Shown here piece by piece: positions 5,992-24,782 of a stretch of 64,000 nt of DNA. Source of the DNA: an uncultured bacterium (GTDB taxonomy: Bacteria; Abyssobacteria; SURF-5). Position 1 is the first letter of the stretch, and the number at the start of each line of letters is the position of its first letter. The notes below the pieces were generated by a model, which did no database searches, was not told where the DNA came from, and worked only from the letters and a program-made list of their open reading frames with translations. The position numbers and the translations under genes are program-made. The stretch is from NCBI GenBank assembly GCA_964607485.1, contig CAZSKP010000012.1:32001-96000 (forward strand), read 5' to 3'.

Positions 5992-6140
5992 ATTATTAAA
6001 GCTCGCAGAATATGGTGAGAGAATCCGAAGGGCCGAATTTATTCGGCCAATTCTCGCAGGAAATGTGCGAATGAATTCGCACCTACACTTGCAAAACCTT
6101 TTGGAAGACGTCATCACTGTATTATGCGCGTTTCAATAAT
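5992..6140. mobile_element. MITE-like element with 21-bp imperfect terminal inverted repeats and an internal REP-like doublet
   Basis: ATTATTAAAGCTCGCAGAATA (5992-6012) matches the reverse complement of 6120-6140 at 17/21. Inside are palindromes GGCCGAATTTATTCGGCC (6031-6048) and GTGCGAATGAATTCGCACCTAC (6065-6086). Confidence 0.5.
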
Positions 6141-6210
6141 CTATTTGACAAATGGTTGTTATTGTGATAGATAATGTTAAGTATAAAGAAAAACTGACCT
6201 AGCTGCAAGG

Positions 6211-7521: not shown

Positions 7522-7711
7522 GATTGTTTATGAGGCTGCTTCGTATCGCTGCCAGCAGATGAGGGGCTAAAGCGCTTGAGGAAGGCAAGACGGCGAAACT
7601 CAGGCGTTGGGTGTGGGATGCATCCAATATATGTTGCTTTCTGGAATTGTCTCGCGTCGCTTTGTTCCAAAGAAAAGGGTTATGAAGACCTTCAGCGTGA
7701 TCGTATAGATT

Positions 7712-9367: not shown

Positions 9368-12300
9368 TCAGTCGAACTTGAGCGGTTTGGCCGAGAACGA
9401 CTCGAAGTTCACCTTGCCGAGCCCGGGGTCGTCGTCACCGTCAACTATCTGTTTCGAAATAGTCTCTTCGTTGTCGGCGCCCCAATAACAATCCGTCGTC
9501 AGGAGGGGGGAAGATTGTGATTCGTTTCCATTATAGAGCTGGCTGCCGGCATTTCCGTAGATGTTGTTCCGCTCGAAGACGAGGTATCCCACGACGAACA
9601 CTCCGCCGTTGCCCCGCTCGGGTGTCGCAAGATTCGAGGTAACGGTATTGTTGGTGAAGACTTCGTTCTCGACCGACATGCCCCAGAAGTTGATATACAC
9701 GCCGCCTCCGAATTCGGACAGCGCCTTGTTCGAAGCCACGTAGTTGCGCGTGATGCTGCTGTTGCGCTCGGCATAGATTCCCCCGCCCCGTGCGGCGCTG
9801 TTGTCGCGCACCTCGTTTGCGGTCACAAGTCCGAAGGTGGCATATATGCCCCCGCCCTCTCCGTCGGCCCGGTTGGATTCGACCTTGTTGCCCACGGCCG
9901 ACGACCTGGAAAGGTAAATGCCTCCGCCGTTGCCGGTGGCCTCGTTGGAGAAAATGTCGTTGTCCTCGACGTGTATCGTGGAAGCGTTCATATAGCCGTA
10001 TGCGAAAACGCCGCCCCCCTCGCCGTCGGCGTGGTTGTGATGAATCCTGTTGGACATGACGCGTATGACGTCATTGGTGTAGGCGTAGATGCCGCCGCCG
10101 TTGGTCGGGGCGGCGTTGTGGTGAATGTCGTTGCCCTGTATGACGGCGCCGCCCTGCCGGACGGTTATCCCGCTGCCGTCGTTATACGCTATCGAACAGT
10201 CCTTTATGAGCGGCGACGAAGACTCGACAAGGATACCCTTTCCGTATTCCAGCAGGCATCGCTCGAGCACGTTCCCGTCTCGGTAATTTCCAGCATCGTC
10301 CAGCGAGGCGTCTTCGCTCGCATCGGCGAATATAATTCTCCCCCATTTCGCGTTCGATTCGCGCGTGAAGAGTATCGGCTCCGAAGGGGCGCCCCTTGCC
10401 ACGAGCTTGCCCCGAACCATGAGGTTCTTATCGGGCGCAAGTCGCACCTGCACACCCGGCTCCATCTGGAGCACGCCCTTGGGCATCACGAGCGTGTTGC
10501 CTGTGACTTGATAGGGACTGAAGCGTTTTTCGAGCTTGACCGACGACGATATAGGCCCCTGAAGGGCCGAGGGGTTGCCGACGATGGTGGTGAAGCAGGT
10601 GGGCTTGCTCCAGCCGGACCAACTGCCGGTGGCGGTGCGATGGGCGACTCGCCAGAAATATTTCTGCCCCTCCTGCAGGCTCTCGCGCGAGATTCTGAGC
10701 GTCGAGAGTTCATCCCCCGATGTGACGGCGTCGATTGTGAGAGTCGTGAAGTCTTCCGGGAAGGCGGAAACCTGCCATCGAGATTCGACGACGTCGTGGG
10801 ACGCGCGCGGCTTGCTTGCCTCCAAGGTCGTCTGTCGCGATACACTCATCTCGGCATCGGGAGGCGAAATGTTTCTCGGGGCGGCGATGGATTCGTCGGA
10901 GCCCGTGAACTTGACGCGAACTTCCTCGGACAGCCCGGTCTCTTTGTCCTCGCCGTCAATGTATCCATACCCGGATACGGCAAACCAGTACTCGGTCCCC
11001 GGTTCGAGTCCTTCAATCGTGAAGGTCTTCTCCGGGCCGGCCTGGACCACACGGTCATACGGGTAGCCGCTTGAGGACCCGAAATAAATCCTGTGCCCCT
11101 CGAAGCCGATGTCCTGAGGGTCGTCCCACGAGAGCCGCACGCCTCCCTTTCGGGCGACGGCCACGAGGTTCATGGGTGGCGGCGGCGGCGCATCGGGCGA
11201 CAAGCGCTCCAGGTAGGGAGTGCAAACGGCAAGGCCGGCGGCCTCGTCGTCGAACCAGTCGAAGATGAGACGCAGTATCTCTTTTTCCGAACGGGCGCCC
11301 CAAAAATTGTCGTCGGCCGGGACGTCGGGCGCGCCGGTCAGGTTTGCGACGTGCAGCGCATATCCGGAATTGTTGAAGATGTTGTTCCCATGGACCGAAG
11401 GATTTCCCGACACATAGATGCCGCCGCATGCGTCCTCGCCGGCGGCCGTGTTCGCTACAACGCAGTTGCGACCGATTTCGCCCGAGCCAAAGTAATAGAC
11501 CGCGCCTCCTTCGGCCTTTTGGGCCACGTTGCGGATTATGCTGTTCGATGCGATTTCGCTGTTCTCCGCGAAAATGCCCGCGCCCTGCTGTGCGAGATTC
11601 GATTGCACCAGGTTGTCGAGAATTCTCGACTCGACGGCGTAGATGCCGCCGCCCCGCTTGGCCGCCGTGTTGCCGACGAGCGTGTTTTGAGCGACAACGC
11701 ACTTGTAGGCGTACATTCCGCCGCCGAACTGGGAGCTGGTGTTTCCGAACAGGATGTTGTTTTTGATTACCGTCTGGCTGCCGTCGGAGGCATAGGCATA
11801 CACTCCGCCGCCGCCGTCGCGCCCGCCTTCGGACGTGTTGTTATAGATGAGATTGTCGGCGATGAGCACGTTTTTGTCGCTGTACGAGATGATTCCTCCG
11901 CCGTTGCCCGAAGCGGAGTCATATGCCGTCGAGTTGCCGTAGATGCGGTTTCGCACGATTCGCGGCGAACCGAATTCGACTCGGATGCCGCTCGAGAAAT
12001 TGTTTCGCACCTCGCAATCTGCGATCAGCGGAGCGCCGAATCGCACGAAAATCCCGCGGCCCTTCTCGATGATGCAGTTCTTGAGGATACACCCTTTGAT
12101 GTACCGGCCGTCTTCGGAGAAAATTGCGTCGTCGCTGAAGTCGGTGAAGTGGAGCGTTCCCCACGGCTCTTCCGAGTGGGCGGTGAATACGACCGGCGCC
12201 TCTTCGGTTCCGACCGCCGTCAATTTTCCCCTGACCTCGAGCATCTTCTCGGGCGCGAGCTCAACCCTCGCGCCGGGCTCGATCTTGAGCGTCACGCCTT

Positions 12301-12475
12301 CCTGGAGAACAACGTTTTCCGTGATCACATACGGGCCCTTCGCGGCGGTCCAAACGGAATTCTTCGAGATGTCCTTTGTGATCGTTGTATCCGCCTGCGA
12401 ATGCGGAGGGATTGCGGCGACGATTGCCGCCGACAGGATCAAAAACATCAACTGCTTGACGCCTGATGTGCTCAT
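9368..12475 (-). CDS. Secreted right-handed parallel beta-helix repeat protein with two duplicated modules and central FN3-like domains
   Basis: Sec signal (LILSAAIVAAIPPHSQA), many N-x-A-xx-GGGIY repeats, FN3 signature (VRLSWD...FTIEGLEPGTEYWFAVS), internal duplication. Confidence 0.8.
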   Translation of the reverse strand: MSTSGVKQLMFLILSAAIVAAIPPHSQADTTITKDISKNSVWTAAKGPYVITENVVLQEGVTLKIEPGARVELAPEKMLEVRGKLTAVGTEEAPVVFTAHSEEPWGTLHFTDFSDDAIFSEDGRYIKGCILKNCIIEKGRGIFVRFGAPLIADCEVRNNFSSGIRVEFGSPRIVRNRIYGNSTAYDSASGNGGGIISYSDKNVLIADNLIYNNTSEGGRDGGGGVYAYASDGSQTVIKNNILFGNTSSQFGGGMYAYKCVVAQNTLVGNTAAKRGGGIYAVESRILDNLVQSNLAQQGAGIFAENSEIASNSIIRNVAQKAEGGAVYYFGSGEIGRNCVVANTAAGEDACGGIYVSGNPSVHGNNIFNNSGYALHVANLTGAPDVPADDNFWGARSEKEILRLIFDWFDDEAAGLAVCTPYLERLSPDAPPPPPMNLVAVARKGGVRLSWDDPQDIGFEGHRIYFGSSSGYPYDRVVQAGPEKTFTIEGLEPGTEYWFAVSGYGYIDGEDKETGLSEEVRVKFTGSDESIAAPRNISPPDAEMSVSRQTTLEASKPRASHDVVESRWQVSAFPEDFTTLTIDAVTSGDELSTLRISRESLQEGQKYFWRVAHRTATGSWSGWSKPTCFTTIVGNPSALQGPISSSVKLEKRFSPYQVTGNTLVMPKGVLQMEPGVQVRLAPDKNLMVRGKLVARGAPSEPILFTRESNAKWGRIIFADASEDASLDDAGNYRDGNVLERCLLEYGKGILVESSSPLIKDCSIAYNDGSGITVRQGGAVIQGNDIHHNAAPTNGGGIYAYTNDVIRVMSNRIHHNHADGEGGGVFAYGYMNASTIHVEDNDIFSNEATGNGGGIYLSRSSAVGNKVESNRADGEGGGIYATFGLVTANEVRDNSAARGGGIYAERNSSITRNYVASNKALSEFGGGVYINFWGMSVENEVFTNNTVTSNLATPERGNGGVFVVGYLVFERNNIYGNAGSQLYNGNESQSSPLLTTDCYWGADNEETISKQIVDGDDDPGLGKVNFESFSAKPLKFD

Positions 12476-12535
12476 CTCACGCCCCCAAAATCATGCCTCA
12501 TCCATTTCCCTGTTCTTGAGAAACACTTTGCCGCG

Positions 12536-14740
12536 TCAGTAGTCCATCTGAGTCCAGTCGATCTTCTCTTCGGTTTCTTCCTCGGGTTTGGGCTCAGGAA
12601 CCTTTTCCATGACCATCATGTATTTCGCCACGTAGTCGATCCACATCTCGGCATCCGACACCCTGGGGACGCCCTCGGGAGTGTAGAACACGTAGGGCAT
12701 CTTCGTGCCGGTGCCCGCATACTTGTCGGGGTTTCGCATGAAATTCTTCATCCACTCGAACCTCAGCCTGGATTTTGCGAGCATGAGGTTTATGGACAGG
12801 TCTTCGAGCTTCACGCCCTCGGGCAGCCCCGCGTCGAGCGAGACGGGATGGCATTGCATGCACTTGTCGCCGATGAAGCGATATTCGCCCATGTCGATTT
12901 CGATCTGGTGAATCTCCTCCTTTTGAGGGAGAAGGAGATAGGGCACGCGCGCGTTTGCGGGCGACGCGGCCTTCACGGAGAAGTAGTCTATCAGCCCTTG
13001 CGCCTGCTCGTATGCGAAAGAGAAGGTTGGCATCCGTATCTTGAGCCATGGCCTCATCGGAACAGGTTTGCTGAGATACTGGAAGGCCCACTGGGGCTGC
13101 ACCTTCTCCCCCTCTCCCACCAGCCGGGGAGGAACGTATGTTTTCAGCGCAATGAACTCATCTATGCGCGGCTTGACGTTTTCATCGAACATGTGGCAGC
13201 CGCGGCAGTTGCTTTCCGTTACGGTCCACTCTCCGTCCCGCCCCCTGCGCTGGTCCTGGGTGGCGGCGAGCATGTACTTTTCGGGCAGCTTGAGCCGGTC
13301 ATTGTATAGGTAGAAGGTGGTGAGAGCTTCCACTTCGCCTTCGTCGAATTTATACTCGGCCATCTTCAGCGGCATGTCTTTGGTTTCATAAATTTTCGGG
13401 GTCTTGATCTTGTTGTATATCCAATCCCACTTCGTGTGTTCGACCGTCGAATCGCCAAACGGCAACTCATCCAGCGCCTTCTTGGCGACCTCCGCCACCT
13501 CCACACCCGGAGCGGGCGCCTTTGCGAGGCTCTTGACGCTATGGCAACCGTAGCATCCCTGCAACTGGACCAGTTTCTCGCCGTTCTGCACCGAGGCTCC
13601 TTCGGTGGTCAGCTTCTCGGAGTCCACCATCTCCTTGTTGCCCTTGAGCGTCATCAGATATGCGGTGAGGTTCAGTCGGTCGGACTCTGTGATGTCGAGC
13701 TTCGGCATCCGCGTGTCGGGATTGTATGCCTTGGGGTCCTTGAGGTATTCGAACACCCAATCGGGCCTCAGTTTCGTGCCCGCGTCGGCAAGGTTCGGCA
13801 CGCGGCGCGTGAGCGAATCCTCGTCCGCCTTCGAAGAATGGCACGCCCTGCAGCCGAGGTCGGTAAAGAGCTTTTCGCCTTCCTGGGCCGATGCCTGGGT
13901 GAGATCGACCTTCGGGTATTCCTTGTCCGACTTCAAGGACAGCACGAAGGCCGTCAGGTCGCGGATTTCCGCGTCGGTCAGTTTGAACGTGGGCATGATG
14001 GTCTTCGGGCGCATCTTTTCCGGAGTCCGAAGCCAGCTCAGCATCCATTTCTCGTTCGACAGCTTATCGACGAATCCGTCGAACGGCGGCGCAAACTTCG
14101 GAAGGTTTTCAAATCCTCGCGCGCCGTGGCAGGCGTAGCAGCCGTATTTTTCGAAAGCCACCCTGCCGCCCTCAATCCTCTCCGCGCCGTCGAGGCCGTA
14201 CGAGGTCTCGTGACATTCGATGCAGGTGGCCTGAAGGTACTCGGCGGGAATGAGCGGGTCGAACCACGTTTCCTCCAGCCCGTGCGCGGCGCGAGTCGAA
14301 GCGCCCACCCCCTGCCCCTTATGGCACACGGTGCAGCCGAATCTCTCGGCCGGGTGCTGTTCCAGTATGCGGCCGGGATGAGTCCTGAAGGGCTCCGGCG
14401 CATCGGAGAAAAGCGGGTTCGCGATTCCCAGGTGACAGGTTGTGCAGAGGTCCCTAACGTTCGCGTCGGGCAAGAATATCTGGCGCAGGTGGGGCCTGGT
14501 GGCGTTCACCTCGCGGAGCTGCTTTTTCCACTTCTCCTTGCTTGCCGGATTATTATTCTCTTCCGGGTCGTGGAGCTTTGCGAGTATCTTCTCCTTGTAC
14601 AATTCATTGAATTCCCGCTGGTACTTGACCCATTCCTTCTCCGCCTCCCTCTGAAACGCACGATAGCTCAGCGCCGCAAACACTACCATCGCCGCGGAGA
14701 ATAACACGCGCTGGCTGGTTTTCGCTCTGATCAGACCCAT
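12536..14740 (-). CDS. Membrane-anchored octaheme cytochrome c (cytochrome c partner of a Rieske/cytochrome b complex)
   Basis: Eight CxxCH motifs (CTTCH, CTVCH, CIECH, CYACH, CRACH, CYGCH, CRGCH, CMQCH) and an N-terminal TM helix. Confidence 0.92.
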   Translation of the reverse strand: MGLIRAKTSQRVLFSAAMVVFAALSYRAFQREAEKEWVKYQREFNELYKEKILAKLHDPEENNNPASKEKWKKQLREVNATRPHLRQIFLPDANVRDLCTTCHLGIANPLFSDAPEPFRTHPGRILEQHPAERFGCTVCHKGQGVGASTRAAHGLEETWFDPLIPAEYLQATCIECHETSYGLDGAERIEGGRVAFEKYGCYACHGARGFENLPKFAPPFDGFVDKLSNEKWMLSWLRTPEKMRPKTIMPTFKLTDAEIRDLTAFVLSLKSDKEYPKVDLTQASAQEGEKLFTDLGCRACHSSKADEDSLTRRVPNLADAGTKLRPDWVFEYLKDPKAYNPDTRMPKLDITESDRLNLTAYLMTLKGNKEMVDSEKLTTEGASVQNGEKLVQLQGCYGCHSVKSLAKAPAPGVEVAEVAKKALDELPFGDSTVEHTKWDWIYNKIKTPKIYETKDMPLKMAEYKFDEGEVEALTTFYLYNDRLKLPEKYMLAATQDQRRGRDGEWTVTESNCRGCHMFDENVKPRIDEFIALKTYVPPRLVGEGEKVQPQWAFQYLSKPVPMRPWLKIRMPTFSFAYEQAQGLIDYFSVKAASPANARVPYLLLPQKEEIHQIEIDMGEYRFIGDKCMQCHPVSLDAGLPEGVKLEDLSINLMLAKSRLRFEWMKNFMRNPDKYAGTGTKMPYVFYTPEGVPRVSDAEMWIDYVAKYMMVMEKVPEPKPEEETEEKIDWTQMDY

Positions 14741-14762
14741 CTGTATCTCTGGCGCAATGCGC

Positions 14763-15512
14763 CTAAATGTTAAACCATGGTGTCGTCAATATGTACCGGA
14801 CATTGAACACAAGCCGCAGGATAATCTTCACGACCACACCGTACATCAACAGCACAAGCGTAAAGGCGGTGATGTACCTGACAGCGCCCATCTTCCTGAA
14901 GAGTCCCTTAGACAGGAGTGCCGGGAGCGTCAGCCCCGCTGCAAAGTACAGAACCAGAAAGCCGATGCCGAGCCAGCGGGGCAGATTGACGAGCGTTTCC
15001 TCAGCGCTCTTGGCAACGGACCAGTCTTCCCACAGCCAATAGAACTGCCAGTTGGGTCCGCGCAGAAACTGGCCGACCAGAATCAGCACTATCCACATCG
15101 CAAAGCCGAAGACAAAGACCGAGACGGCCGCCTTGCGCTTGCGGAAACTGTATTCGCCCACCCCGGCCGTGCTCGTGTCGAGGTATGGGATGAGCATGAG
15201 CCCGAATATTATCAGCAGAGGAATCACCACGCCGGCAATCCACGGGTCGAAGTACACGAGCAGCTCCTGGAGCCCGACGAAATACCACGGCGCCTTTGCC
15301 GGGTTCTCCGTCTTGTTGGGGTCGGCAATGCTCAACAGCGGCGCGTTGGCCGCCATCGACCACGCGAGCAACACGACGGAGGCGATGACGACGGCAATCA
15401 GCTCCTTGATGACGAGATGGGGCAGAACGAACTCGTAATCGTTGTCGAGTCTTTTTTCGGGAGCGTGCATCGCGGACCCCTTTGCGTCAGAGCGGATGAG
15501 AGATTCCGCCAT
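14763..15512 (-). CDS. Cytochrome b C-terminal subunit (subunit IV/PetD-like)
   Basis: [16 protein letters not shown] (variant of the PEWY Qo motif), IPYLD, several TM helices; overlaps the cytochrome b6 gene. Confidence 0.87.
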
Positions 15513-16248
15513 CTTTTCTCACCCGCCAGAAATGAACGAATATGAGGACGGTCGCGACCAGCGGCAGCAGTATGCAATGAAGCACATAGAACCGGAGCAG
15601 TGCGTTCTCTCCGACGACGGTATCTCCCAAGAGCAGGTAGCGGACATCGTTGTTGGCCCTGATTCCGAGCAGCGAGTGGAACGGTCCCTCGGCGCCAACG
15701 AAGGGAGCGGCTCCCCCCATCTTGGTGCCGACGGTAATCGCCCAGAAGGAAAGCTGGTCCCACGGCAGCAGGTATCCCGTAAAGCTGAGCAGAAGCGTCA
15801 GCACCAGGAGGCACACGCCCACCACCCAGTTGAATTCCCTGGGCGGCTTGTAGGAAGCCGTGAGGAAGACGCGGAGCATGTGCATCATCACCAGTATGAC
15901 CATCGCGTGCGCAGCCCACCTGTGCAGGTTCCTCATTATCGTCCCGAACTTGACCGCGTGCTCGAGCAGGCGCATGTCGAGGTACGCATATTCGACCGTG
16001 GGACGATAGTAGAACATCAGCAGCACGCCCGTTATGGTCTCCACGATAAACATGAAGAAGGTGAGTCCGCCGAGACAGAACGTGTGGCTGATCTTCAGAC
16101 CTTCCCTGTGAACCTTGGGCGGATGCAGATGGAGGAAAAAATTAGAAACGACCGTGAGCACCCGGTTGCGGGGGGTGTCGCTAAATTTGTGGCGGACTAT
16201 GGAACGCCATAGCTGACTCTCAGTGATCTTTTTCGAGATCTTGCTCAT
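15487..16248 (-). CDS. petB: Cytochrome b6-type subunit (cytochrome b N-terminal)
   Basis: [47 protein letters not shown]-x14-H and the GISHPL terminus. Confidence 0.92.
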
Positions 16249-16342
16249 TTCTGCCAGTGTTTGGGGTCATCATACCTGTCAAGGTGTTTCCTCGACTCCC
16301 GGCCGGTTGCTCAGGGAAGAGACGCGTGCTCCCGACCCCGGC

Positions 16343-17053
16343 CTATTTCCTGTCGGGATAAAGCGACCTGAGATATTTCAAGTCTGCTGCGCAAAAATTC
16401 GCCGAAAGTTCGATGAGGGCCCAGTAGAAAGACACAGCCGGCTCGCAGAGCTTGGGGATTTTCGCATGGAACACTTTCTCGGTTCTCTGAAAAAGCTGCG
16501 GCAGCCACTTCGTCGGGTGGCGGTCCAGGAAATCGATTTCCGCAAAACAATAAGGGGAAGGGTCCTCGTCGCGCTGGAGCGCGAGCACCTCTTTGAACGC
16601 CAGGTAGTGCATGAACTCGAGCTCCGTGGTGATATGGTCGGGCACTTCCCGTTCGCGCGCCTCGGCCACGCTGAGGCCGAAGTGGTTGTAGAAACGCACG
16701 AGGTCTTCCATGTTTGTCATTCTGTCGGCGACATATTGCCCCTCGTACAGCGGGCACGGCGGACCTCCGGGACCGGCATCGAAGACGCGGACAAACTCGG
16801 CCTCGAAGTCGTCCTGCGATACGTGCTTGAGCAATTGGCCCGAGAGCCCTCCTTCCTCAGCCGCGACTTCAAACGGAACATCATGCAAGACAGCCAGAGC
16901 CGATTCCAGATAGTCGCCGTGCTTTGCCATCTTGAAGAAATCCTTGTCGGGATACCGAAAAGATTCCGCCAGGAACCGGTACATCTGGCTCCGTCGGGCC
17001 CGCGCCATTTGGTCGGGGTCTTCTATGTTGTCGATCTCGGCGAACGTCTCCAT
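16343..17053 (-). CDS. TorD/DmsD-family molybdoenzyme maturation chaperone (EbdD-like)
   Basis: PLYEGQY and EVPDHITTELEFM motifs; follows the beta subunit. Confidence 0.88.
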   Translation of the reverse strand: METFAEIDNIEDPDQMARARRSQMYRFLAESFRYPDKDFFKMAKHGDYLESALAVLHDVPFEVAAEEGGLSGQLLKHVSQDDFEAEFVRVFDAGPGGPPCPLYEGQYVADRMTNMEDLVRFYNHFGLSVAEAREREVPDHITTELEFMHYLAFKEVLALQRDEDPSPYCFAEIDFLDRHPTKWLPQLFQRTEKVFHAKIPKLCEPAVSFYWALIELSANFCAADLKYLRSLYPDRK

Positions 17054-17078
17054 CGCTCCCCTCCTTGACTGCGCATAT

Positions 17079-18236
17079 TCACACCGCAGTGATCGGGTCC
17101 TTATCGAACGGTCCGAACATCTTGTGCCATCGTTTCGCTATGAGTATCTCCATCAACTCCGACTTCTCTCCGTCGCGTGTGCGCTCCATTTCGCGCTGGA
17201 GCAGGTTCAGCGACTGCTCGACCTCCGGGCCGAACAGATGCACCATGTACTTCAGCGGAATGCGGGGCTTGGATGGGTCGAGCTTGCCCGAGTCATCCAG
17301 CCGTGGAGGCGCGAGCGGCGGAACGTAGAACACGTTGGGCTCGGTTCCGAACTGCGGGAACAGCGGCAGCGCGACTTTCCACTTCTTCACCAGTTGATAG
17401 ACCGGTCCCTGCTCGTTGTCGAGGTAATCCACGAACCGGACGCGTCCGGTGCACTGACGTGCGCAGGCGTTGGCCACCCCTTTCTCTATCCTAGGATAAC
17501 AGAAGATGCACTTCATGCTAGTCAGCGTCTCGAAGTTGAAGTATATCTTCTTGTACGGGCACGACTCCAGACAGAACCTGTAGCCCTTGCAGCGGTCCTG
17601 GTCTATCAAGACGACGCCGTCCTCTTCCCGCTTGTAGATGGCGTGCCTCGGACACGCGTCGATACAAGGAGGGTAGGTGCAGTGGTTGCAGATTCTGGGG
17701 AGATAGAAGAAGAAACTGTTGGGATAGTTGAAGGCGGCGGACCAATCATACGGCCCCTGGTCTTCATCCCAGTTCATGGCCCAGTCGGGTTCGGTGCCGT
17801 CGGGGTTCTTCGCCGTCAGCTTGACGGTGCCCCACTTGCTGGTCACCAATTCGTCATGATTGAACTTCCAGAGGTCGCCGAATTCCTTCCGGGTGGGCAA
17901 TTTGCCCAGAATCGGCTCGCGGACGCTCTTCTTCTCAAACTCGTCCTTGAACTCTTTGACCTTGTATCCTCCGCCGAGGTCTTCGACGTTCTTCGGAGTT
18001 CCCTTGCCGGGCATGGTGTTGACCGTGTTCCACCACATGTATTCCCGGCCCTCTTTCTTGGTCCATGTGTTCTTGCATGCCATGCTGCAGAGCTGGCATC
18101 CGACGCATTTGTTCAGGTCCATCACCATCGCAAGCTGGTGGTTGGTTCTGCGCAGCTCGTCTTTTATGGCGAGAAATTCCTTTGCGAGTTCTTCCTCTCT
18201 CTTCTTGTCTTCGGGGGTTGGTTCTATTACCGCCAT
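17079..18236 (-). CDS. Type II DMSO-reductase-family beta (Fe-S) subunit, EbdB/NarH-like
   Basis: DLNKCVGCQLCSMACKNTW, YMWWNTV, LPRICNHCTYPPC...CP, CKGYRFC...CPYKK and KCIFCYPR...C: the three [4Fe-4S] plus one [3Fe-4S] pattern. Confidence 0.93.
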   Translation of the reverse strand: MAVIEPTPEDKKREEELAKEFLAIKDELRRTNHQLAMVMDLNKCVGCQLCSMACKNTWTKKEGREYMWWNTVNTMPGKGTPKNVEDLGGGYKVKEFKDEFEKKSVREPILGKLPTRKEFGDLWKFNHDELVTSKWGTVKLTAKNPDGTEPDWAMNWDEDQGPYDWSAAFNYPNSFFFYLPRICNHCTYPPCIDACPRHAIYKREEDGVVLIDQDRCKGYRFCLESCPYKKIYFNFETLTSMKCIFCYPRIEKGVANACARQCTGRVRFVDYLDNEQGPVYQLVKKWKVALPLFPQFGTEPNVFYVPPLAPPRLDDSGKLDPSKPRIPLKYMVHLFGPEVEQSLNLLQREMERTRDGEKSELMEILIAKRWHKMFGPFDKDPITAV

Positions 18237-18282
18237 GAGCTTTTTCTCCTGTTCATGCTCCGGGCTTCAGCCAATACCATTG

Positions 18283-18963
18283 CTAGGCCAACACGAGGTC
18301 GCGCCACTCTTTCGAGAAGGCCTTCACGCCGCCACGCTCGCCTGCGGATCCTTCCCATGCCGCAATGCCGATGGATTTCTTCCCGCCGGCGGCGATCTGT
18401 ATCGCCTGCTCCGGCGCCTCGAACGCGCGCCCGACGATCACCGTCCATTCTCCGTCCTTCCATGCGGAATTGGCGAAGATAGAGCTGTCGTCGGTGTAGA
18501 GGCTCGTTGAGAGCCCTTCGGAAACCTGGTTCTTCGGCTTGTTCTCGAAATCGGCCCGCCAGTACCACGCATTCGTGGGAGCCTCCTGCGTTCCCATTTC
18601 TTTTATCGGAGTGTCCTTGCCATCCTTCATGGGGAACAGCAGGGCCACGCCGTCGGGAAACGTGTTGAGGTCGCCGATTGTGAGGTTTGCCTCTTTGCTC
18701 TTCCACCTCAGCCGGAAGAAGATGTCCTTGCCGTTGTGGAGGGTCTTCAAGACGACCTGCGCCACCTTGCCCAGCTCCTTTTCATCGCGAGTCGCCTTGA
18801 TATACGGAGAGGGCTGGTTCGCCAGAGGAGTCGACGCCATTTCGATCGTGTATTCATTGCCGTTGGACCATACGGGCGAATCCAGTTTGAGCAATTCGTC
18901 CCTCGAGGCGGAGACCCTCGCCGCCACTATCTGGCCAACCAAAGCCGTTTCATTCTCAGCCAT
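18283..18963 (-). CDS. Soluble heme b gamma subunit, EbdC-like
   Basis: HNGKDIFFRLRW, FPDGVALLFP, EMG (Met ligand), WEGSAGERGGVK (Lys ligand); no TM helix. Confidence 0.88.
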   Translation of the reverse strand: MAENETALVGQIVAARVSASRDELLKLDSPVWSNGNEYTIEMASTPLANQPSPYIKATRDEKELGKVAQVVLKTLHNGKDIFFRLRWKSKEANLTIGDLNTFPDGVALLFPMKDGKDTPIKEMGTQEAPTNAWYWRADFENKPKNQVSEGLSTSLYTDDSSIFANSAWKDGEWTVIVGRAFEAPEQAIQIAAGGKKSIGIAAWEGSAGERGGVKAFSKEWRDLVLA

Positions 18964-18993
18964 AAGACATTGCCCCCTTACCTTTCACCAAAC

Positions 18994-21903
18994 TTATGCC
19001 TTCTCAACCTCGACCGATATCGCGCGGTCGATAGGCTGGGTGCACCAGTTCCATCGATAATAATTCAGATGACCGTAGCCCGCTGCCAGGTCGAGCCACT
19101 TCATCATGCCCGGGATCGCCGTGTCGTAGCTCTTCCACTTCTCAAACTGGTACGGCTCCCAGGCGTGATAGATTATCACCTGGCCCGGCCTCGGCCCCTT
19201 TTCCGAACGGGCCGCCGAGGTCAGCTTGACGTGAACCGTGAAATCGTCGAAGTCGTTGTGCACACGAACGAGGTCGCCGTCCTTGATGCCCCGCTTCTTT
19301 GCATCTTCGGCGTTCATGAACATGAACGGGCGGCCCTGGTGCGTGCGTGAGAGCACGTTGTCGGTGATCCATATCGAATGGATGCTCCACCTCTGGTGGC
19401 CGCTCGTCATGCGGAGCGGGTAGTTGCCCCCCATCTTCGGGTTGTCCTTGTGGACGGGGAAGCCCTCTCCGGCTTCGAGGAACCAGTCGTGGTCGATGTA
19501 GAAGCTGATCCTGCGATTGTACGTGGGATACGGGATCTTCTTCGGGCCGGTGTGGAACGTGAGCGGCACAATCGGCTCGTCGGGCTTGATCTCGGTCATG
19601 AGATGTTTGGCGATTATGTCCATGTCGGACACTTTCGTGAAGCGCACGATGCCGTCCCTGCGAAGAGTTTCGAGGGTCGTGTCCTCCGGCAGTGTGCCGA
19701 GCTTGGCGCTGAGCTTGAGCGCGTCGTCGAGCGTTTCGTCGCCGCTCGTACGCTCCAGCGTCTGTCGTTTGACCAATTGCGTCATGTCAAATTCAACCCC
19801 TTGGCGGGATTTGAACTTGGTGTAGTTCCTCTGCTCAGCAAGCTGCTTCATCCTCTCAGCCATCAGGCGGCCGACCTCCCATTCCTCTTTGGCTTCGCCG
19901 AGGGGCTGAACGGCCGCCTCGGTGAGCGTCAGCCACGGCACGTGAGGAGTGGGAAAACGTGTGTCGGTCTTCTCGTAGAACCCCGCCCCGGGCATGACCA
20001 TGTCGGACAGAAGCGCCGTAGTGCTCCAGCGGGTTTCTATCGTGAAGATGAATTTGTACTGCTTCCACAGTTCCGGATATATGTTCTTCCACCAGCCGCG
20101 GTTTTTTCGAGCGGGACTCGTGCCCATGAAGCAATAAACGAGCGGCTTCTGGTCGGGCGCCGGCCGCACGAGGCCGTCCCACCAGCCTTTGTCGATCGCC
20201 TCGTTCATGTATTCGTCGAAGCTGCGCTTCATCGTTGGGCAGTGCCACTCTTTCTTGTTCCATGTGTCGCGGTAATTGGAATGGAAGTAGTAGAGGAAAG
20301 CCGGCGGCACCATGCCCAGCCGTTCTCTGTCCGCGTTGCGCTCAAGCTCCCTCTGAATAATCTCGTCGGTTAGCTCGGGGTCTTTGGCCTTGAGCATGAA
20401 CTTGTCGAGCCTCGATTCGCCATACTGGAGGAGCGACGTCAGTCCCCTCCTTTCGCGGATCATCAGCGCCGTCGCCCCGTCGAACAGCGACTCGCTCCAG
20501 CCGCGGATTCCGCTGCCCTTGTTGCCCACGCTTCCGGTGAGCGCCAGCAGCAGGCACATCGAACGCTCCATCAGGTCGCCGTGGTAGTACTTGGACGAGT
20601 TCCAGCCGACGAGCACCTGCACATGGCCGCGCGCCTTCCACGCCTTGTGCGCAACACGCCGGATGGTGTCGGGATGCACGCCGCACAGCTCCGACGCCTT
20701 CTCGGGAGTGTAATCGCGGTCGAGTATCTCTTTATAGACGCCGAAACCGGGCCTCACCTCGACGCGTTTGCCGTCGTTCAGCGTGACGGTGTACGTGCCC
20801 TCGAGGGCGGGGTCGCACGGAAGCGCGAGCGTGCCGCGCGGCGCCTTGACGGGCGCATTGGTCGCCGGGTCCCAGAAATACATCTGGTCTTCCAATCCGC
20901 CGCCGGTCAGGTCGGTCTCGCGGAGGAACTTCTTGGTGTCCATCCTGATGAGCAGCGGGAAATCGGTCTGCTCTTTTAAGAACGACTTGTCGTACGTGCC
21001 CTCGGATATGAGCACCTGCGCCATTCCGAGCCCGAACGCCGCGTCGGCGCCAGGCTCCACCGGAACCCATTCGTCGGCGTGGACCGCCGAGGGCGAATAG
21101 TCGGGCGCGATGGTGATCACCTCGGTGCCGTTGTACCGCGCCTCGGATATGAAGTGGTACGACGGGATGCGGGTGTACACGGGGTTCATGTGCCAGATGA
21201 GGATGAGCTTCCCGAAGAACCATCCGTCGCACGAATCGCAGAACTGGAACTTGCCGAACGTTTCGTAAACGCCCTTGTTGAAATCTCCGATGGTGGAGTT
21301 GAGGTCGAGCTCGGTGGCGCCCAGGCCGCTGAAGAACCGGAATATCGTTATCAGATGTATCCAGCCCCCGTTTCCCGGGCCCGGCTCATAGATAATGGAT
21401 TCCGGACCCTCGGTCTGGATGGCGTCCATCAGGTGTGTGCACGTCGTGTCTATGGCTTCCTCCCAGGAGATCCTTTTCCACTTGCCTTCGCCTCGTTCGC
21501 CCACGCGCTTCATCGGATACTTCACGCGGTCGGGGTTGTACATCATGTTGCTGTACGAACAGCCCTTCTGACAGCCGCGCGGATTCCAGTCGGGGCCGGT
21601 CGCGTCTATGACCGGATACTTGCCCGCCTGCTCCTCGCGCCACACGACGCCGTCCTTGGTGTACACACGCCACAGGCAGTTTCCGGGATAGCAGTCCACG
21701 AGATGTGTGCCGTAGGTGATCTTGTCCCACTTCCATTCATCTCTGTGGAGGCCCTCCCAATTCTTGTACTCCCATTTCTGGAAGACCTTCTCGGTGGCGT
21801 GGGCCACTCCTCCGAGGAAACCCAGCGAGTCGAGCGAAAGCGCCAGCGCCGTAGTACCCGTAATCTTCAGGAACTGACGCCTCGTGAATCTGAACTCCGA
21901 CAT
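18994..21903 (-). CDS. Tat-exported Mo-bisPGD catalytic alpha subunit of the ethylbenzene dehydrogenase / steroid C25 dehydrogenase-like clade
   Basis: Tat signal FTRRQFLK; FS0 motif GTHLVDCYPGNC...NPRGCQKG; RVKYPMKRVGERGEGKWKRISW; IGDF with candidate Asp Mo ligand; HQRWSIHS. At 969 aa it is shorter than NarG. Confidence 0.92.
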   Translation of the reverse strand: MSEFRFTRRQFLKITGTTALALSLDSLGFLGGVAHATEKVFQKWEYKNWEGLHRDEWKWDKITYGTHLVDCYPGNCLWRVYTKDGVVWREEQAGKYPVIDATGPDWNPRGCQKGCSYSNMMYNPDRVKYPMKRVGERGEGKWKRISWEEAIDTTCTHLMDAIQTEGPESIIYEPGPGNGGWIHLITIFRFFSGLGATELDLNSTIGDFNKGVYETFGKFQFCDSCDGWFFGKLILIWHMNPVYTRIPSYHFISEARYNGTEVITIAPDYSPSAVHADEWVPVEPGADAAFGLGMAQVLISEGTYDKSFLKEQTDFPLLIRMDTKKFLRETDLTGGGLEDQMYFWDPATNAPVKAPRGTLALPCDPALEGTYTVTLNDGKRVEVRPGFGVYKEILDRDYTPEKASELCGVHPDTIRRVAHKAWKARGHVQVLVGWNSSKYYHGDLMERSMCLLLALTGSVGNKGSGIRGWSESLFDGATALMIRERRGLTSLLQYGESRLDKFMLKAKDPELTDEIIQRELERNADRERLGMVPPAFLYYFHSNYRDTWNKKEWHCPTMKRSFDEYMNEAIDKGWWDGLVRPAPDQKPLVYCFMGTSPARKNRGWWKNIYPELWKQYKFIFTIETRWSTTALLSDMVMPGAGFYEKTDTRFPTPHVPWLTLTEAAVQPLGEAKEEWEVGRLMAERMKQLAEQRNYTKFKSRQGVEFDMTQLVKRQTLERTSGDETLDDALKLSAKLGTLPEDTTLETLRRDGIVRFTKVSDMDIIAKHLMTEIKPDEPIVPLTFHTGPKKIPYPTYNRRISFYIDHDWFLEAGEGFPVHKDNPKMGGNYPLRMTSGHQRWSIHSIWITDNVLSRTHQGRPFMFMNAEDAKKRGIKDGDLVRVHNDFDDFTVHVKLTSAARSEKGPRPGQVIIYHAWEPYQFEKWKSYDTAIPGMMKWLDLAAGYGHLNYYRWNWCTQPIDRAISVEVEKA

Positions 21904-21958
21904 AAGAACCTCCTTGCTCCAAAAACCCCCTGGCCGCGGCGCCTCGCGCGGCCCTTTG

Positions 21959-23035
21959 TCACGGTTTCAGCGCAATCTTGATAACGTTATCGAGTTTTTT
22001 GTCAAACATTTCGTATGCTCTCACACCTTCGTCCAGCGACATGGTGTGAGTGATCAGCGGAGTAGTGTCGAGCAGTCCCGCCTCGATTATTTTCAAGAGT
22101 CTGTCCATGTGCACGACATTGACGAGGCCCATGGTAACGCCTATGTTCTTCACGGCGAGCTGCGGCATCAAGAGTTCCTGCGCTTCTTCAAAAAGGCCGA
22201 CGATCGACACGTTCCCGCCCGGCCTGACGGCCTGGAAGGCGGCATCCAGAGTGGGTTTTATCCCGACGGCCTCTATCGCCACGTCCGCTCCGCTGCGGCT
22301 GGTGAATTCCTCGAGCAGGTCCTGGGGCGCTCCGCCCGTCAGGTCCTTTATCTGCTCGACCGCATCGGTCTTGGAGGGATCGATCGTATGCGTCGCCCCG
22401 AGCTTCTTCGCCACTTCGAGCCGGTTTGCTATGGGATCGACGACGATCAGCTTGGACGGGCTGAAAAGCCTTGCGCACGCCGTCGCGCAGAGCCCCACCG
22501 GGCCGCCCCCGAAAACGGCGACCGCATCGCCCGGCGCCGTCTTCCCGTTGATTACGCCGAAATACCCGGTGGACAGGATGTCGCCCACGAACAGCACCTG
22601 TTCGTCGGTCAGCCCGTCGGGAATCTTGTGCATCCCGATCTGAGCGAACGGAACGCGCACGTATTCGGCCTGAGCGCCGACGAAGCTACCCAGTATCGGT
22701 CCGCAGCCGTATATGCCCCCCCGGACGCATTTGGCCGCCAGACCCTTCAGGCACATCTCACACTTTCCGCACTGCACCGTGGCCGCCACCGCCACCCGGT
22801 CGCCGACCTCGAATCCTTCGACCCGGTCGCCGAGCTCTTCGACGACGCCGACGAATTCGTGCCCGATGGTATCGCCGGGCATCATCGGCGCGGCGCCGCG
22901 GACCATGTGGATGTCGCTTCCGCAGATACTCGTCAGCGTGACCTTGACGATCGCGTCGTCGGGGTCCTGCAGCGTGGGTCTGGCGACATCGGCCACCGCC
23001 ACCTTATCGACTTCTTCGAACACTATCGCTTTCAT
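21959..23035 (-). CDS. Zinc-dependent alcohol dehydrogenase (MDR family)
   Basis: ICGSDIH, GHEFVG, CGKCEMC-x7-C and FGGGPVG motifs; no signal peptide. Confidence 0.92.
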   Translation of the reverse strand: MKAIVFEEVDKVAVADVARPTLQDPDDAIVKVTLTSICGSDIHMVRGAAPMMPGDTIGHEFVGVVEELGDRVEGFEVGDRVAVAATVQCGKCEMCLKGLAAKCVRGGIYGCGPILGSFVGAQAEYVRVPFAQIGMHKIPDGLTDEQVLFVGDILSTGYFGVINGKTAPGDAVAVFGGGPVGLCATACARLFSPSKLIVVDPIANRLEVAKKLGATHTIDPSKTDAVEQIKDLTGGAPQDLLEEFTSRSGADVAIEAVGIKPTLDAAFQAVRPGGNVSIVGLFEEAQELLMPQLAVKNIGVTMGLVNVVHMDRLLKIIEAGLLDTTPLITHTMSLDEGVRAYEMFDKKLDNVIKIALKP

Positions 23036-23298
23036 GTTTCCCCGTTAGTAAATGGAACCATCGTTATGGCGTTCCACGGACAGCCCTCTATGCGGGCGCC
23101 GAGGTAACCGCGCGTCGTGCAACTGCGGCACCCGGTACATTTGTCCGGATTTACCCGCATGCGCTTAAAAAGAAAACTGCTTTCGTCGGCCACATACTCG
23201 AGCGCTCCCTCGGCCGGACAGTACATCTTGCAGACGGGCGTGCCCGCACAGCCCGTGCAGCTTTCGTCTATGGAGGCGACGAAGCGCTTTTTCGCCAT
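23032..23298 (-). CDS. 2[4Fe-4S] ferredoxin with insertions
   Basis: CTGCAGTPVCKMYCP and CTGCRSC-x12-CP; ATGA overlap with the ADH start. Confidence 0.85.
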   Translation of the reverse strand: MAKKRFVASIDESCTGCAGTPVCKMYCPAEGALEYVADESSFLFKRMRVNPDKCTGCRSCTTRGYLGARIEGCPWNAITMVPFTNGET

Positions 23299-23327
23299 GG
23301 GCCTGGTTTGCCCTCCACAAGGCCCGC

Positions 23328-23915
23328 TCAGCCGACGCGAACGAAAACCTTTTGCCTCTCGAATTCCTGTATGTCAAACACGACGCTGGTATCGACGACC
23401 AGGTTGCCGCGGTCGTTTGTGTATATCTTGAGCCTGTCGAGCGGCCTGGGCGCCGGGCCAGCGAAGTTGACTCCGTTTGAATGGAACTGGCTGCCGTGAC
23501 ACGGACACTTGTAGATGCCCAGTCCCGGAAACCAGTTCACCGTACAGCCGAGGTGCGTGCATCGCGCGAAAAGCGCATATATCCGCGAAGTTTCGCGGAT
23601 GACAAAAAACCGGTTCTGTTTCTTCCACCTGGGCTCGACGTAGATGACGCCGTACGCGTCGGGGTCGGCGCCGGTGGAGAAATCGTCAACCGTTCCTATT
23701 TCGAAGGTGCTCGGCGGGTGAAACACGACGGAGGGCGAGAAAAAGCGGACCGTCTCGACGGCGCCCGCAGCCGTCAGGCCGAACAGCGTTCCCCATCCGA
23801 TGACGGAGAGGCTCTTCTCCAACAGCTCGCGCCGCGTTATGCCGAATGAGGACGCCGCGGCCGCTGCATCGCTCAACGTTGTCTTGGCTTCCGTCATGTG
23901 TGTGCTCACGGTCAA
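23328..23915 (-). CDS. Rieske [2Fe-2S] subunit of a Rieske/cytochrome b complex (start possibly 23897)
   Basis: CTHLGC and CPCHGS boxes, GPAPRPL, and a Tat-like TRRELL followed by a TM anchor. Confidence 0.93.
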   Translation of the reverse strand: MTVSTHMTEAKTTLSDAAAAASSFGITRRELLEKSLSVIGWGTLFGLTAAGAVETVRFFSPSVVFHPPSTFEIGTVDDFSTGADPDAYGVIYVEPRWKKQNRFFVIRETSRIYALFARCTHLGCTVNWFPGLGIYKCPCHGSQFHSNGVNFAGPAPRPLDRLKIYTNDRGNLVVDTSVVFDIQEFERQKVFVRVG

Positions 23916-23930
23916 GCCACGGGCAAAAAC

Positions 23931-24677
23931 TCAAATCCGCTCGCGCTCGAGCTCGCGGCTTATCTTGAGTATCAGCCTCTTCCGAAGTATCCCGATGAGG
24001 CTGTTCAGCAGGTTTATGCCGCTTTCGGCCATTTCGACCATCTCATCGAATGACAACCTGCCCGTGACGCTCCTGGAGAAAAACCTTACCTCTTGCTTTG
24101 CCAGGACCTCGATCAGGTCCGAGTACATCTTCAGGAACTCCGACGTAAAGCCGGCCTCTCTCGTATAGCCCGCCTCGCGGAGCTTATTGAGTATTTCCAC
24201 TATTCTCACGCAATCCTCGTCGAAAAGCCCGTCGGGCCGGCGCGAGATGACGCCAATGCGCTCCAGCTCCTCCACCTCGTCAATGCTGACCCCTGCGCGG
24301 GCGCTCAATTGCTGTATGTCCGGGGGTTGAAACTTAGGAAGGGCGGAAAGGTTCTTGAAGAGCTTCCCCTCGAGCTGCAGGAGGGTCTTGACCTCCTCGC
24401 TGTCCATTGGGTTTTCGTTCTCCTCGAGCATCTGCTTGATTATGCTGAGCGGGAGAAACCTCTTTTCCTGCAATTCCCTTATCAGCTTTATTCTGCCGAC
24501 ATAGCTCTGGTCGTAATAGGCCATGTTGCGATGCGTCTTGAGCGGTTTCGGCAGGAGCCCCTCGTTGATGTAATACCGAATCGTGCCTGGCGGCACACCA
24601 GTCATTTTCGACAGTTCGCGCATCTTGAGGAGCTTTTCGCGGGCGGAGGGTTTGCTTCTTGCAGAAGAGAAATCCAT
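23931..24677 (-). CDS. MerR-family transcriptional regulator
   Basis: MRELSKMTGVPPGTIRYYINEGLLP HTH and a second HTH-like segment. The tracked TTG start at 24782 coincides with the -35 hexamer, so ATG 24677 is preferred. Confidence 0.88.
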   Translation of the reverse strand: MDFSSARSKPSAREKLLKMRELSKMTGVPPGTIRYYINEGLLPKPLKTHRNMAYYDQSYVGRIKLIRELQEKRFLPLSIIKQMLEENENPMDSEEVKTLLQLEGKLFKNLSALPKFQPPDIQQLSARAGVSIDEVEELERIGVISRRPDGLFDEDCVRIVEILNKLREAGYTREAGFTSEFLKMYSDLIEVLAKQEVRFFSRSVTGRLSFDEMVEMAESGINLLNSLIGILRKRLILKISRELERERI

Positions 24678-24722
24678 ATCCCTAAAATCGCATTGCCGAG
24701 TGTATGGAGAGGGATGGTTAAA

Positions 24723-24738
24723 AGTTAACAGTTTAACT
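24723..24738. promoter_or_regulatory. Candidate operator (inverted repeat)
   Basis: AGTTAA-N4-TTAACT just downstream of the predicted -10, overlapping a second GTTAA-N3-TTAAC at 24717-24729. Confidence 0.5.
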
Positions 24739-24753
24739 ATGTACCTTGCGCAT

Positions 24754-24782
24754 AACTTACCATATAGCAGAGGTTTTGTCAA
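24754..24782 (-). promoter_or_regulatory. sigma70 promoter of the MerR/Rieske/molybdoenzyme operon
   Basis: Minus strand TTGACA-N17-TAAGTT with TGG immediately before the -10. Confidence 0.65.

Follow-up and report, generated by a model that had tools for sequence, protein, structure and literature searches.

The DNA stretch analysed here (the window, 64,000 nucleotides; positions 32,001 to 96,000 of contig CAZSKP010000012.1, GenBank assembly GCA_964607485.1) originates from an uncultured sediment bacterium of the GTDB lineage SURF-5 within the Abyssobacteria and harbours a compact gene cluster for a molybdoenzyme resembling ethylbenzene dehydrogenase (EBDH), together with genes for a Rieske/cytochrome b (bc) complex, a ferredoxin and an octahaem cytochrome c. 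Eleven genes are located on the minus strand between positions 24782 and 12536 (Table 1). A preliminary description, prepared from the sequence alone, had named these eleven genes; all of them were recovered at their positions, and their identities are backed by Pfam and NCBIfam models. The molybdoenzyme genes lie within the bc genes, such that the Rieske gene and the cytochrome b6 gene are 7.1 kb apart, in agreement with the earlier estimate of about 7 kb. The end of the operon, previously set at 12536, has to be moved: a gene for an exported β-helix protein follows 60 bases downstream of the octahaem gene and is considered the twelfth member of the cluster, because it is conserved together with the octahaem gene across the loci compared below.

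Neighbouring genes of the cluster overlap by up to 26 bases or are separated by at most 94 bases, and from this spacing only we infer co-transcription. The single promoter predicted in the preliminary description was not recovered: a sigma-70 consensus scan found no minus-strand site upstream of the MerR gene, and the numbers of promoter-like sites (8 versus 6.0 ± 2.0 expected) and terminator-like sites (16 versus 18.5 ± 3.9 expected) were at chance level. Among the listed sequencing runs matching the region none is an RNA run; six are DNA runs from sediment metagenomes, one of which contains most of the words of the region.

Table 1 Genes of the molybdoenzyme/bc cluster in the window
Product	Position	Strand	Supporting features
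MerR-family regulator	23931-24782	-	PF13411 78.7 bits; helix-turn-helix (HTH) residues 52-121
Rieske [2Fe-2S] protein, twin-arginine (Tat) signal-anchor	23328-23915	-	PF00355 and b6f PetC-type NCBIfam models
2[4Fe-4S] ferredoxin, 88 amino acids (aa)	23032-23298	-	Fer4 families; no signal peptide
Cytoplasmic NAD-type Zn-dependent alcohol dehydrogenase (Zn-ADH), polyol/threonine-dehydrogenase-like	21959-23035	-	ADH_N and ADH_zinc_N
Mo-bisPGD [molybdo-bis(pyranopterin guanine dinucleotide)] α-subunit, 969 aa, EBDH-like	18994-21903	-	PF00384 119 bits, PF01568 59.8 bits
Haem b γ-subunit, EB_dh fold	18283-18963	-	PF09459 112 bits; no signal peptide
Fe-S β-subunit, four clusters	17079-18236	-	TIGR03478 468.6 bits; EbdB model 429 bits
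NarJ/TorD-type assembly chaperone (δ)	16343-17053	-	PF02613; TIGR03482 143 bits
Cytochrome b6-type protein, 4 transmembrane (TM) helices	15487-16248	-	PF00033 144.5 bits; ExtP 271.3 bits
Subunit IV homologue, 5 predicted TM segments	14763-15512	-	PF00032, ExtQ
Octahaem cytochrome c, 734 aa, N-terminal membrane anchor	12536-14740	-	Cytochrom_C and CBB3 families
Sec-exported β-helix protein, 1035 aa	9368-12475	-	PF13229 (two β-helix domains), PF00041 (fn3), signal peptide

The open reading frame (ORF) of the MerR-family regulator, as listed, begins with TTG and encodes 283 aa; since about 50 residues precede the HTH, translation probably begins inside this frame, near residue 54. Orthologues of this regulator (67-76 % identity) are located upstream of the cluster in three further loci (L007, L127, L129). 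The Rieske protein carries the Tat motif TRRELL and the cluster-binding motifs CTHLGC and CPCHGSQF, which, in the form TRRELL, CTHLGC and CPCHGS(Q/E)(F/Y), are kept in all 14 aligned sequences. In the ferredoxin, eight cysteines and the motif GCPW(N/D)AI are invariant in the alignment. The Zn-ADH possesses GGGPVG and Asp200 and lacks a signal peptide; its top NCBIfam matches, IolM and Tdh, remained below their cut-offs, and the enzyme is of the secondary-alcohol/polyol type. The α-subunit is furnished with a Tat motif (TRRQFLK, residues 7-13), whereas no export signal was read from the sequence of the β-subunit. Exactly eight CxxCH motifs are present in the octahaem cytochrome c, arranged as four closely spaced haems and four class-I-like domains, and all eight positions are conserved in 15 of 15 orthologues.

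The conservation of this arrangement was assessed with an alignment of 14 α homologues, which led to 76 loci from species-representative genomes, and with tblastn searches using the twelve proteins of the window. Of the 76 loci, 15 combine molybdoenzyme genes with a Rieske gene, a cytochrome b6 gene or both. Three of these belong to the lineage of the window (L007, L026, L047; α 83-85 % identical), eleven to metagenome-assembled genomes (MAGs) assigned to Thermodesulfobacteriota, Desulfobacterales or 'Deltaproteobacteria' (α 62-66 % identical; L013-L017, L019, L020, L023, L043, L046, L063; among them L019 from a Desulfosudaceae MAG), and the remaining one, L025, encodes an α-subunit of 58 % identity. 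Ten linked loci span everything from the Rieske through to the octahaem gene, and five are truncated at contig ends. L025 shows a reshuffled order, α-γ-β-δ-Rieske-ferredoxin-b6-subunit IV-octahaem-β-helix, with all these parts retained. The synteny looked for in the preliminary description is thus kept across at least two phyla and survives this rearrangement, an outcome that favours a real coupling. Because the linkage recurs in 15 of 76 loci and throughout the family of the window, the arrangement is far beyond chance.

Some components follow the molybdoenzyme more closely than others. The ferredoxin gene is located directly after the Rieske gene in all 16 other Rieske-containing loci and is missing from all four paralogous bc modules without a molybdoenzyme. 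Of the 15 other loci whose sequence reaches 2 kb or more past the octahaem gene, 14 have a β-helix gene following it, L015 being the exception; an Atlas search with the β-helix protein returned generic β-helix/fn3 clusters alone, with scores of at most 0.84. The ADH gene, on the other hand, was found in all four loci of the window's phylum reaching that far (L007, L127, L128, L129; 66-81 % identity) and is absent from the twelve other, Desulfobacterales-type loci. A ferredoxin-NAD(+) reductase-like flavoprotein encoded 339 bases downstream of the β-helix gene (7712-9028, minus strand; best NCBIfam match PadH, 254 bits, below cut-off) was considered as a further member and as a possible partner of the ferredoxin. 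It is shared in place with L007 only and was placed outside the unit, since a downstream counterpart is absent in L121, L127 and L128. Other genes near the cluster in individual loci include one for a 974-aa glycyl-radical enzyme resembling pyruvate formate-lyase, 5 kb upstream of the cluster in a Thermodesulfobacteriota MAG (L013, 53-2977, minus strand), and one for a fumarate-reductase-type flavoprotein in L013 and L063.

Within the window's own lineage, represented by 11 genomes of its phylum in the GTDB set, all nine other genomes of the family contain a cytochrome b6 orthologue (87-90 % identity), which in six of the nine lies at most 4 kb from α on the same contig. In G006 and G009 the contig ends inside the cluster (L121 just after γ, L126 in β), and in G003 the cytochrome b6 gene begins 686 bases from the contig end. 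The genome of the window harbours a single α gene; several family relatives possess one to five additional ones (72-82 % identity). 'Orphan' α genes, 78-81 % identical to that of the window in L001, L002, L004, L005 and L010 and 67 % identical in L012, have no β, γ, δ or bc genes in their flanks; they lie mostly at about 10001-12910 of their loci, and in L001 a MerR-like gene is located upstream. This pattern resembles that of the steroid C25 hydroxylase isoenzymes sharing βγ-subunits, for which eight α genes and fewer βγ sets were described (PMC6016249; papers are cited here by PMC identifier, in each case for the excerpts that were accessible). Related genomes also contain paralogous Rieske-b6-subunit IV-octahaem modules (L122, L124, L125), which share the quinol-oxidation (Qo) site motif APWY and lack both molybdoenzyme and ferredoxin. 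Adjoining the Rieske gene of a further paralogous APWY-type module, at a contig end, is a gene for an EB_dh haem b protein (L123, contig 9 of G005, 11738-12442, minus strand), and a second molybdoenzyme may be attached to this module. In Chloroflexota, Myxococcota and other MAGs (L029-L034, L035, L038, L059, L064, L070-L074), between two and five EBDH-like α genes form arrays that include one or two βγδ sets; bc genes were not seen in the flanks of these arrays.

The type of molybdoenzyme was assessed by pairwise comparison, model searches and trees. Among PDB chains the window's α-subunit matched EbdA of Aromatoleum aromaticum (2ivf_A) over its full length with 771 bits, as compared to 472 bits for PcrA, about 202 bits for NarG and 148 bits for NxrA; ClrA scored 505 bits to PcrA and 421 bits to EbdA. 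Identity to ClrA and to haloarchaeal pNarG amounts to 30 % in each case. In the model for type II α-subunits (TIGR03479), which is weighted towards the reductase side, the window reached 893.3 bits and remained under the curated cut-off of 984.75, while ClrA and pNarG scored 1347 and 1452 bits, respectively. The EbdA model (NF042978) yielded 807.5 bits versus a cut-off of 2000, so that the protein is not an EbdA equivalog; nine members encoded together with bc genes (bc-linked) scored 764-861 bits, the Chloroflexota clade nearest to them 850-895 bits, and ClrA and pNarG 446 and 439 bits, respectively.

Trees were built with references from plasmids (Ideonella ClrA, a chlorite-dismutase (cld)-linked reductase, Haloferax mediterranei NarG and Thermus NarG), and with the exclusion of α-subunits with fewer than 700 aligned residues or internal stops (e.g., L018, L024, L039, L047, L049, L052, L061, L076) as well as L006. 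FastTree analysis of 110 α-subunits united all 15 bc-linked ones in one clade of 27 rows with support 100, and the same clade received an SH-like approximate likelihood ratio (SH-aLRT) of 100 in an IQ-TREE analysis of 43 α-subunits. Orphan α paralogues are nested within this clade. The four references (ClrA, the cld-linked reductase and the NarG proteins of H. mediterranei and Thermus) branch outside the EBDH-like rows as a whole, with support 96-99. Because of the PDB and EbdA-model scores together with the trees, the window's α-subunit is placed on the EBDH side of the family without being an EbdA. In the phylogenetic check that the preliminary description had called for, it accordingly stands apart from the Nar and Clr references in the trees and from Pcr in the pairwise scores, the reference set being partial; this result favours the hydroxylase side.

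A link to ahyA was provided by the published primers for this gene (PMC7803848), both of which match L021 exactly and would delimit a 488-bp product; L021 is located inside the support-100 bc-linked clade. By this operational, primer-based definition, the bc-linked clade is equated with the environmental 'ahyA cluster', since the exactly matched L021 falls within it. The resemblance to the 'ahyA cluster' and to AhyABC, which in Desulfococcus (Desulfosudis) oleovorans Hxd3 is the putative anaerobic alkane C2-methylene hydroxylase, consists in the clade shared with L021 and in an α identity of 62-66 % to Desulfobacterales-type members, among them the Desulfosudaceae MAG (L019), whereas the window belongs to a sister subclade and another phylum, is not matched by the primer pair within 3 and 4 mismatches, and possesses the ADH gene. 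The ahy cluster of strain Hxd3 is reportedly quoted as a seven-gene span, in which bc genes could be silently included.

Among characterised enzymes, EbdABC(D) of A. aromaticum (2IVF) is the best solved-structure match for both α and γ. Common to the two systems are the αβγδ set, a Tat-exported α-subunit with an Asp ligand to molybdenum, an insertion in the motif of the Fe-S cluster FS0, and a γ-subunit with Met/Lys-ligated haem b and without a signal peptide of its own. Asp207 of the window aligns with the molybdenum ligand Asp223 of EbdA, and the position of EbdA Lys450 is taken in the sequence alignment by an invariant Lys438. The FS0 ligands H67-x3-C71-x4-C76 and C111 are invariant in the alignment of 14 α homologues; their spacing (Hx3Cx4C) includes an insertion, as does that of EbdA (Hx3Cx5C), in comparison with PcrA, ClrA and pNarG (Hx3Cx3C). 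The γ-subunit scored 119.9 bits against 2ivf_C, with Met123 and Lys214 aligned to Met108 and Lys201 of EbdC, and shares with EbdC the lack of a signal peptide, which ClrC and the haloarchaeal EB_dh protein possess. The Asp ligand is described as conserved in subfamily II (PMC8840923). The window differs from the Ebd system in its gene order, α-γ-β-δ, and in the addition of the Rieske/cytochrome b complex, the octahaem c, the ferredoxin and the β-helix protein. To our knowledge, the ebd operon contains genes for none of these additional parts.

The bc complex combines traits of cytochrome b6f with others that are foreign to it. A split cytochrome b, a cysteine for haem ci and a PetC-like Rieske protein are b6f-like; unlike in b6f, an octahaem c replaces cytochrome f, subunit IV is longer, with five segments rather than three TM helices, and the Qo motif is APWY rather than PEWY. 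All 14 aligned sequences of cytochrome b6 keep the haem b ligands (His109/123 and His224/239) and the haem ci ligand Cys58 (FCLGG); in subunit IV, the Qo motif shows no variation at A74, W76 and Y77 and at least 90 % conservation at P75. In NCBIfam, cytochrome b6 and subunit IV were best matched by ExtP and ExtQ, models belonging to the ext cluster of Geobacter, and the score of cytochrome b6 with ExtP, just under the cut-off (NF040969; 290), marks it as a close relative rather than an equivalog. The window's genome (G000) contains three cytochrome b systems, only the molybdoenzyme-linked one of which carries APWY. The second is a b6-type Rieske/cytochrome b complex with PEWY, flanked by two multihaem cytochromes (contig 5; L088 7007-11137), and the third a long cytochrome b with PDWY between c7-like cytochromes (contig 65; L089 6139-9761). 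In addition, an alternative complex III (ACIII) adjoining a cbb3 oxidase (contig 9; L090 7378-16195) and QrcB-like, DmsA-like and PhsA-like enzymes are encoded.

A split ci-type cytochrome b, a multihaem c in place of cytochrome f/c1 and extra redox subunits are likewise found in the complexes of anammox bacteria (Kuenenia) and in the Ext-type complexes of Geobacter; in contrast to these, the partner in the window is a molybdoenzyme and the extra subunit an 88-aa ferredoxin, not a flavoprotein. The split ci-type cytochromes b of D. oleovorans, Kuenenia and Geobacter were assigned to one heterogeneous group ('group A2', PMC3509893), and the accessible part of that paper does not mention a molybdoenzyme context for the group. 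Complexes with APWY were defined as a clade by Kao and Hunte (2014) and named as candidates for reverse operation (PMC4122944). The combination of a hydroxylase with a reversed bc complex, one of the possibilities raised in the preliminary description, gains this Qo motif in its favour, the direction of flow itself being deduced only. The arrangement has a parallel in Geobacter metallireducens, where an APWY-type bc complex is clustered with p-cresol methylhydroxylase (PCMH) and a reversed Q cycle that takes the high-potential electrons to menaquinone was proposed (Peters 2007 and Johannes 2008, as cited in PMC4122944). Shared with the window, as judged from the description in that paper, is a water-dependent anaerobic hydroxylase encoded with an APWY-type bc complex, whereas PCMH is a flavocytochrome c and the window's enzyme a molybdoenzyme.

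Gene content, cofactor motifs, export signals, conserved synteny and phylogenetic placement are observed; for the intact system, we infer from them the substrate class, the direction of electron flow, how the parts make contact and what the ferredoxin does. The Tat-exported, soluble periplasmic αβγ enzyme would act oxidatively on a hydrophobic substrate, water supplying the oxygen that is inserted into a C-H bond, and the electrons would leave at high potential through the Met/Lys-ligated haem b of γ. They would then pass to the anchored octahaem c and on to the Rieske centre of the dedicated b6f-like complex, which, operating the Q cycle backwards with its APWY motif, would reduce menaquinone at the Qo site at the expense of the proton-motive force. 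Low-potential electrons entering via the ferredoxin and the b/ci haems might provide an added or alternative source of energy. In the window's phylum the alcohol formed could diffuse into the cytoplasm and be oxidized to the ketone by the NAD-dependent Zn-ADH.

Menaquinone has a potential of about -75 mV and ferredoxin one of about -400 mV; Desulfobacterales are known for sulfate reducers. The haem b of EBDH lies at +256 mV and the ethylbenzene/phenylethanol couple at +30 mV (PMC8840923). We give about even credence to the proposal that the cluster forms one functional unit, in which an oxidative hydroxylase delivers high-potential electrons that are pushed into menaquinone by a bc complex working in reverse. 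In its favour are the conserved linkage, the phylogeny and pairwise scores, the link to ahyA, the features shared with EBDH, the APWY motif, the pattern of orphan α genes and the type of the ADH. Many of the hosts, moreover, are Desulfobacterales-type MAGs, and sulfate reducers, for which this order is known, are not known to possess an acceptor of high potential that could take up electrons of about +250 mV.

In a variant, electrons would be confurcated on the quinone, one from the ferredoxin, as partner of the haem ci-containing module on the cytoplasmic side, and one from the hydroxylase merging at Qo to yield menaquinol. Averaging about -400 and +250 mV gives a value near the potential of menaquinone, and the process would exactly invert the electron bifurcation towards a cytoplasmic NAD(P) reductase that was proposed for anammox bc complexes with NAD(P) reductase subunits (PMC12954380); we nevertheless rate it as rather improbable. 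If true, it would supply the missing bioenergetic solution for water-dependent C-H hydroxylation in sulfate reducers and other strict anaerobes. The ferredoxin may be the low-potential entry point, since it occurs only in the molybdoenzyme-linked module and always beside the Rieske gene; a role in maturation is equally possible. Co-folding of the ferredoxin with the Rieske protein, cytochrome b6 and subunit IV (14-row alignments) gave scores of 0.01 and 0.00 versus a mark of 0.32, a result that speaks neither for nor against a contact.

Several points weigh against an oxidative hydroxylase with reversed electron flow. The EbdA cut-off is not reached by the window or by any of 49 relatives (522-895 bits), and the trees contain neither EbdA, S25dA, CmdA and Hxd3 AhyA nor SerA, DdhA, PcrA and NxrA. 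At the position of EbdA His192, which we take to be catalytically important and, together with Lys450, an active-site residue, the window carries Pro176 in the sequence alignment. Phylogeny predicts substrate poorly in this family, and dimethyl sulfide dehydrogenase groups with reductases. In 2026 papers AhyA-type enzymes are still called candidates, n-alkane hydroxylation being without biochemical proof (PMC13515206), and the link between APWY and reverse operation is a hypothesis, no member of the APWY clade having been characterised according to PMC4122944. In the window's genome dsrA was not found, and neither was a canonical NarG with the query used. Because the genome holds ACIII and a cbb3 oxidase, the organism could pass electrons downhill when oxygen is present, and uphill flow is not strictly required. 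A survey of the flanks of ten related loci (80 ORFs) did not reveal common catabolic genes, e.g., for carboxylases, and hence gave no hint of the substrate. Finally, a paper on the related lineage Candidatus Abyssubacteria annotates nar genes (PMC6121073), and the window's α-subunit shares 82 % identity with a named Abyssubacteria protein. In view of this annotation and of the missing canonical NarG, the 'nar' genes may be the present EBDH-like cluster, and a reading as nitrate reductase may already be in print.

That reading would make the enzyme a terminal reductase, which reduces a high-potential inorganic or organic acceptor in the periplasm and receives electrons, via octahaem c and γ, from menaquinol oxidized in a forward Q cycle. 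We judge this unlikely, though it accounts for part of the data. The 'nar' annotation and the missing NarG would both fit it, the DmsA-like and PhsA-like respiratory enzymes indicate diverse anaerobic respirations, and the haem ligands of γ and the clusters of β are common to reductases and dehydrogenases of the family (PMC8840923). Its model is the haloarchaeal periplasm-facing Nar system (NarB/NarC) of H. mediterranei (L082), in which one cluster unites NarGH as type II molybdoenzyme and a chaperone with an EB_dh haem b protein, cytochrome b and a Rieske protein, described as a proposed respiratory nitrate-reducing chain (PMC3509893). This system works as a reductase and lacks a multihaem c and a ferredoxin. 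Its cytochrome b is of another lineage (Actinobacteria/Thermus type), unsplit (485 aa), devoid of the ci cysteine and 28 % identical to that of the window; at Qo it carries PDWF, of the PDWY/PDWF type, rather than APWY. If both systems couple a type II molybdoenzyme to a bc complex, the two couplings would, judging from these different bc lineages, have arisen independently. The low identity of the window's α-subunit to pNarG and ClrA and its position outside the reductase references in both trees also speak against a reductase, as does the ADH gene within the operon in the window's phylum, and the expansions of α paralogues (78-85 %) are more readily explained by diversification of substrates than by one oxyanion. 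Were the enzyme a reductase nonetheless, the haloarchaeal Nar/bc system would have in it a first counterpart from bacteria, built on an unrelated bc lineage.

An oxidative enzyme could also be combined with an ordinary forward bc complex, the octahaem c serving as a shared hub that gathers electrons from the enzyme as well as from the Rieske centre and hands them to high-potential sinks such as the cbb3 oxidase or N-oxide reductases without any uphill flow. Eight haems would allow for several partners, and ACIII and the cbb3 oxidase are at hand in the window's genome. The cluster is, however, kept in Desulfobacterales-type MAGs, at whose loci (the part of these genomes compared) a high-potential oxidase was not seen; the genome of the window already possesses two other cytochrome b systems besides ACIII; and a shared hub gives no reason for a quinone-reactive module to stay with the enzyme, entire and with its special Qo motif, through the rearrangement in L025. 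We therefore regard this arrangement as distinctly unlikely. That the bc and molybdoenzyme genes are independent and form a chance or merely regulatory neighbourhood appears highly improbable: APWY-type bc modules do occur without a molybdoenzyme in relatives (L122, L124, L125), and no RNA run holding the region is among those listed, yet the bc-linked α-subunits are monophyletic, and the tightly spaced linkage is kept at α identities from 58 % to 85 %, across phyla and through a change in gene order.

The building blocks of the cluster are known, as are two analogous couplings, the haloarchaeal Nar/bc system and the PCMH/APWY bc system of Geobacter. In the literature searchable in full text, with some likely reviews beyond its reach, no paper was found that connects Rieske/cytochrome b genes with ahy genes or other EBDH-like ones, and the accessible parts of the ahyA papers searched do not mention the former. 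New within this literature is that molybdoenzymes of the ahyA type are linked, systematically and across their clade, to a bc complex with APWY and haem ci, along with an octahaem c, a ferredoxin and a β-helix protein. The statement of the preliminary description that no characterised EBDH-clade enzyme with its own bc complex was known to its author holds to this extent, while the concept as such has its precedent in PCMH.

The disposal of electrons at about +250 mV without oxygen or nitrate is the standing objection to the hydroxylation route of anaerobic alkane degradation; ahyA is nevertheless in wide use as a metagenomic marker. The tie of the ahyA-type clade to a quinone-reactive complex of its own, from a class suspected to run in reverse, would offer a concrete and testable answer to this objection. 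The combination of α-subunit, APWY-type bc complex and octahaem c provides an improved genomic signature, and the cluster a natural system to study reverse or confurcating Q cycles.

Beyond the cluster, a large exopolysaccharide locus is oriented divergently from it (26052-57654, plus strand), with genes for a porin, Wza/Wzc-like export proteins, many GT4 glycosyltransferases and two Wzy-like proteins, and with three B12-binding radical SAM genes (33517-35058, 43828-45216, 52099-53574). It is followed by trehalose genes (57690-62059, minus strand) for an OtsA-like GT20 protein, a trehalose phosphatase and a TreT-like synthase, adjoining a gene for a DUF5752 protein. A segment of lower G+C content (0.44-0.48 versus about 0.59 elsewhere) at 4001-8000 contains a rubrerythrin-like gene, ORFs without family assignment and a gene for a GT87 glycosyltransferase.

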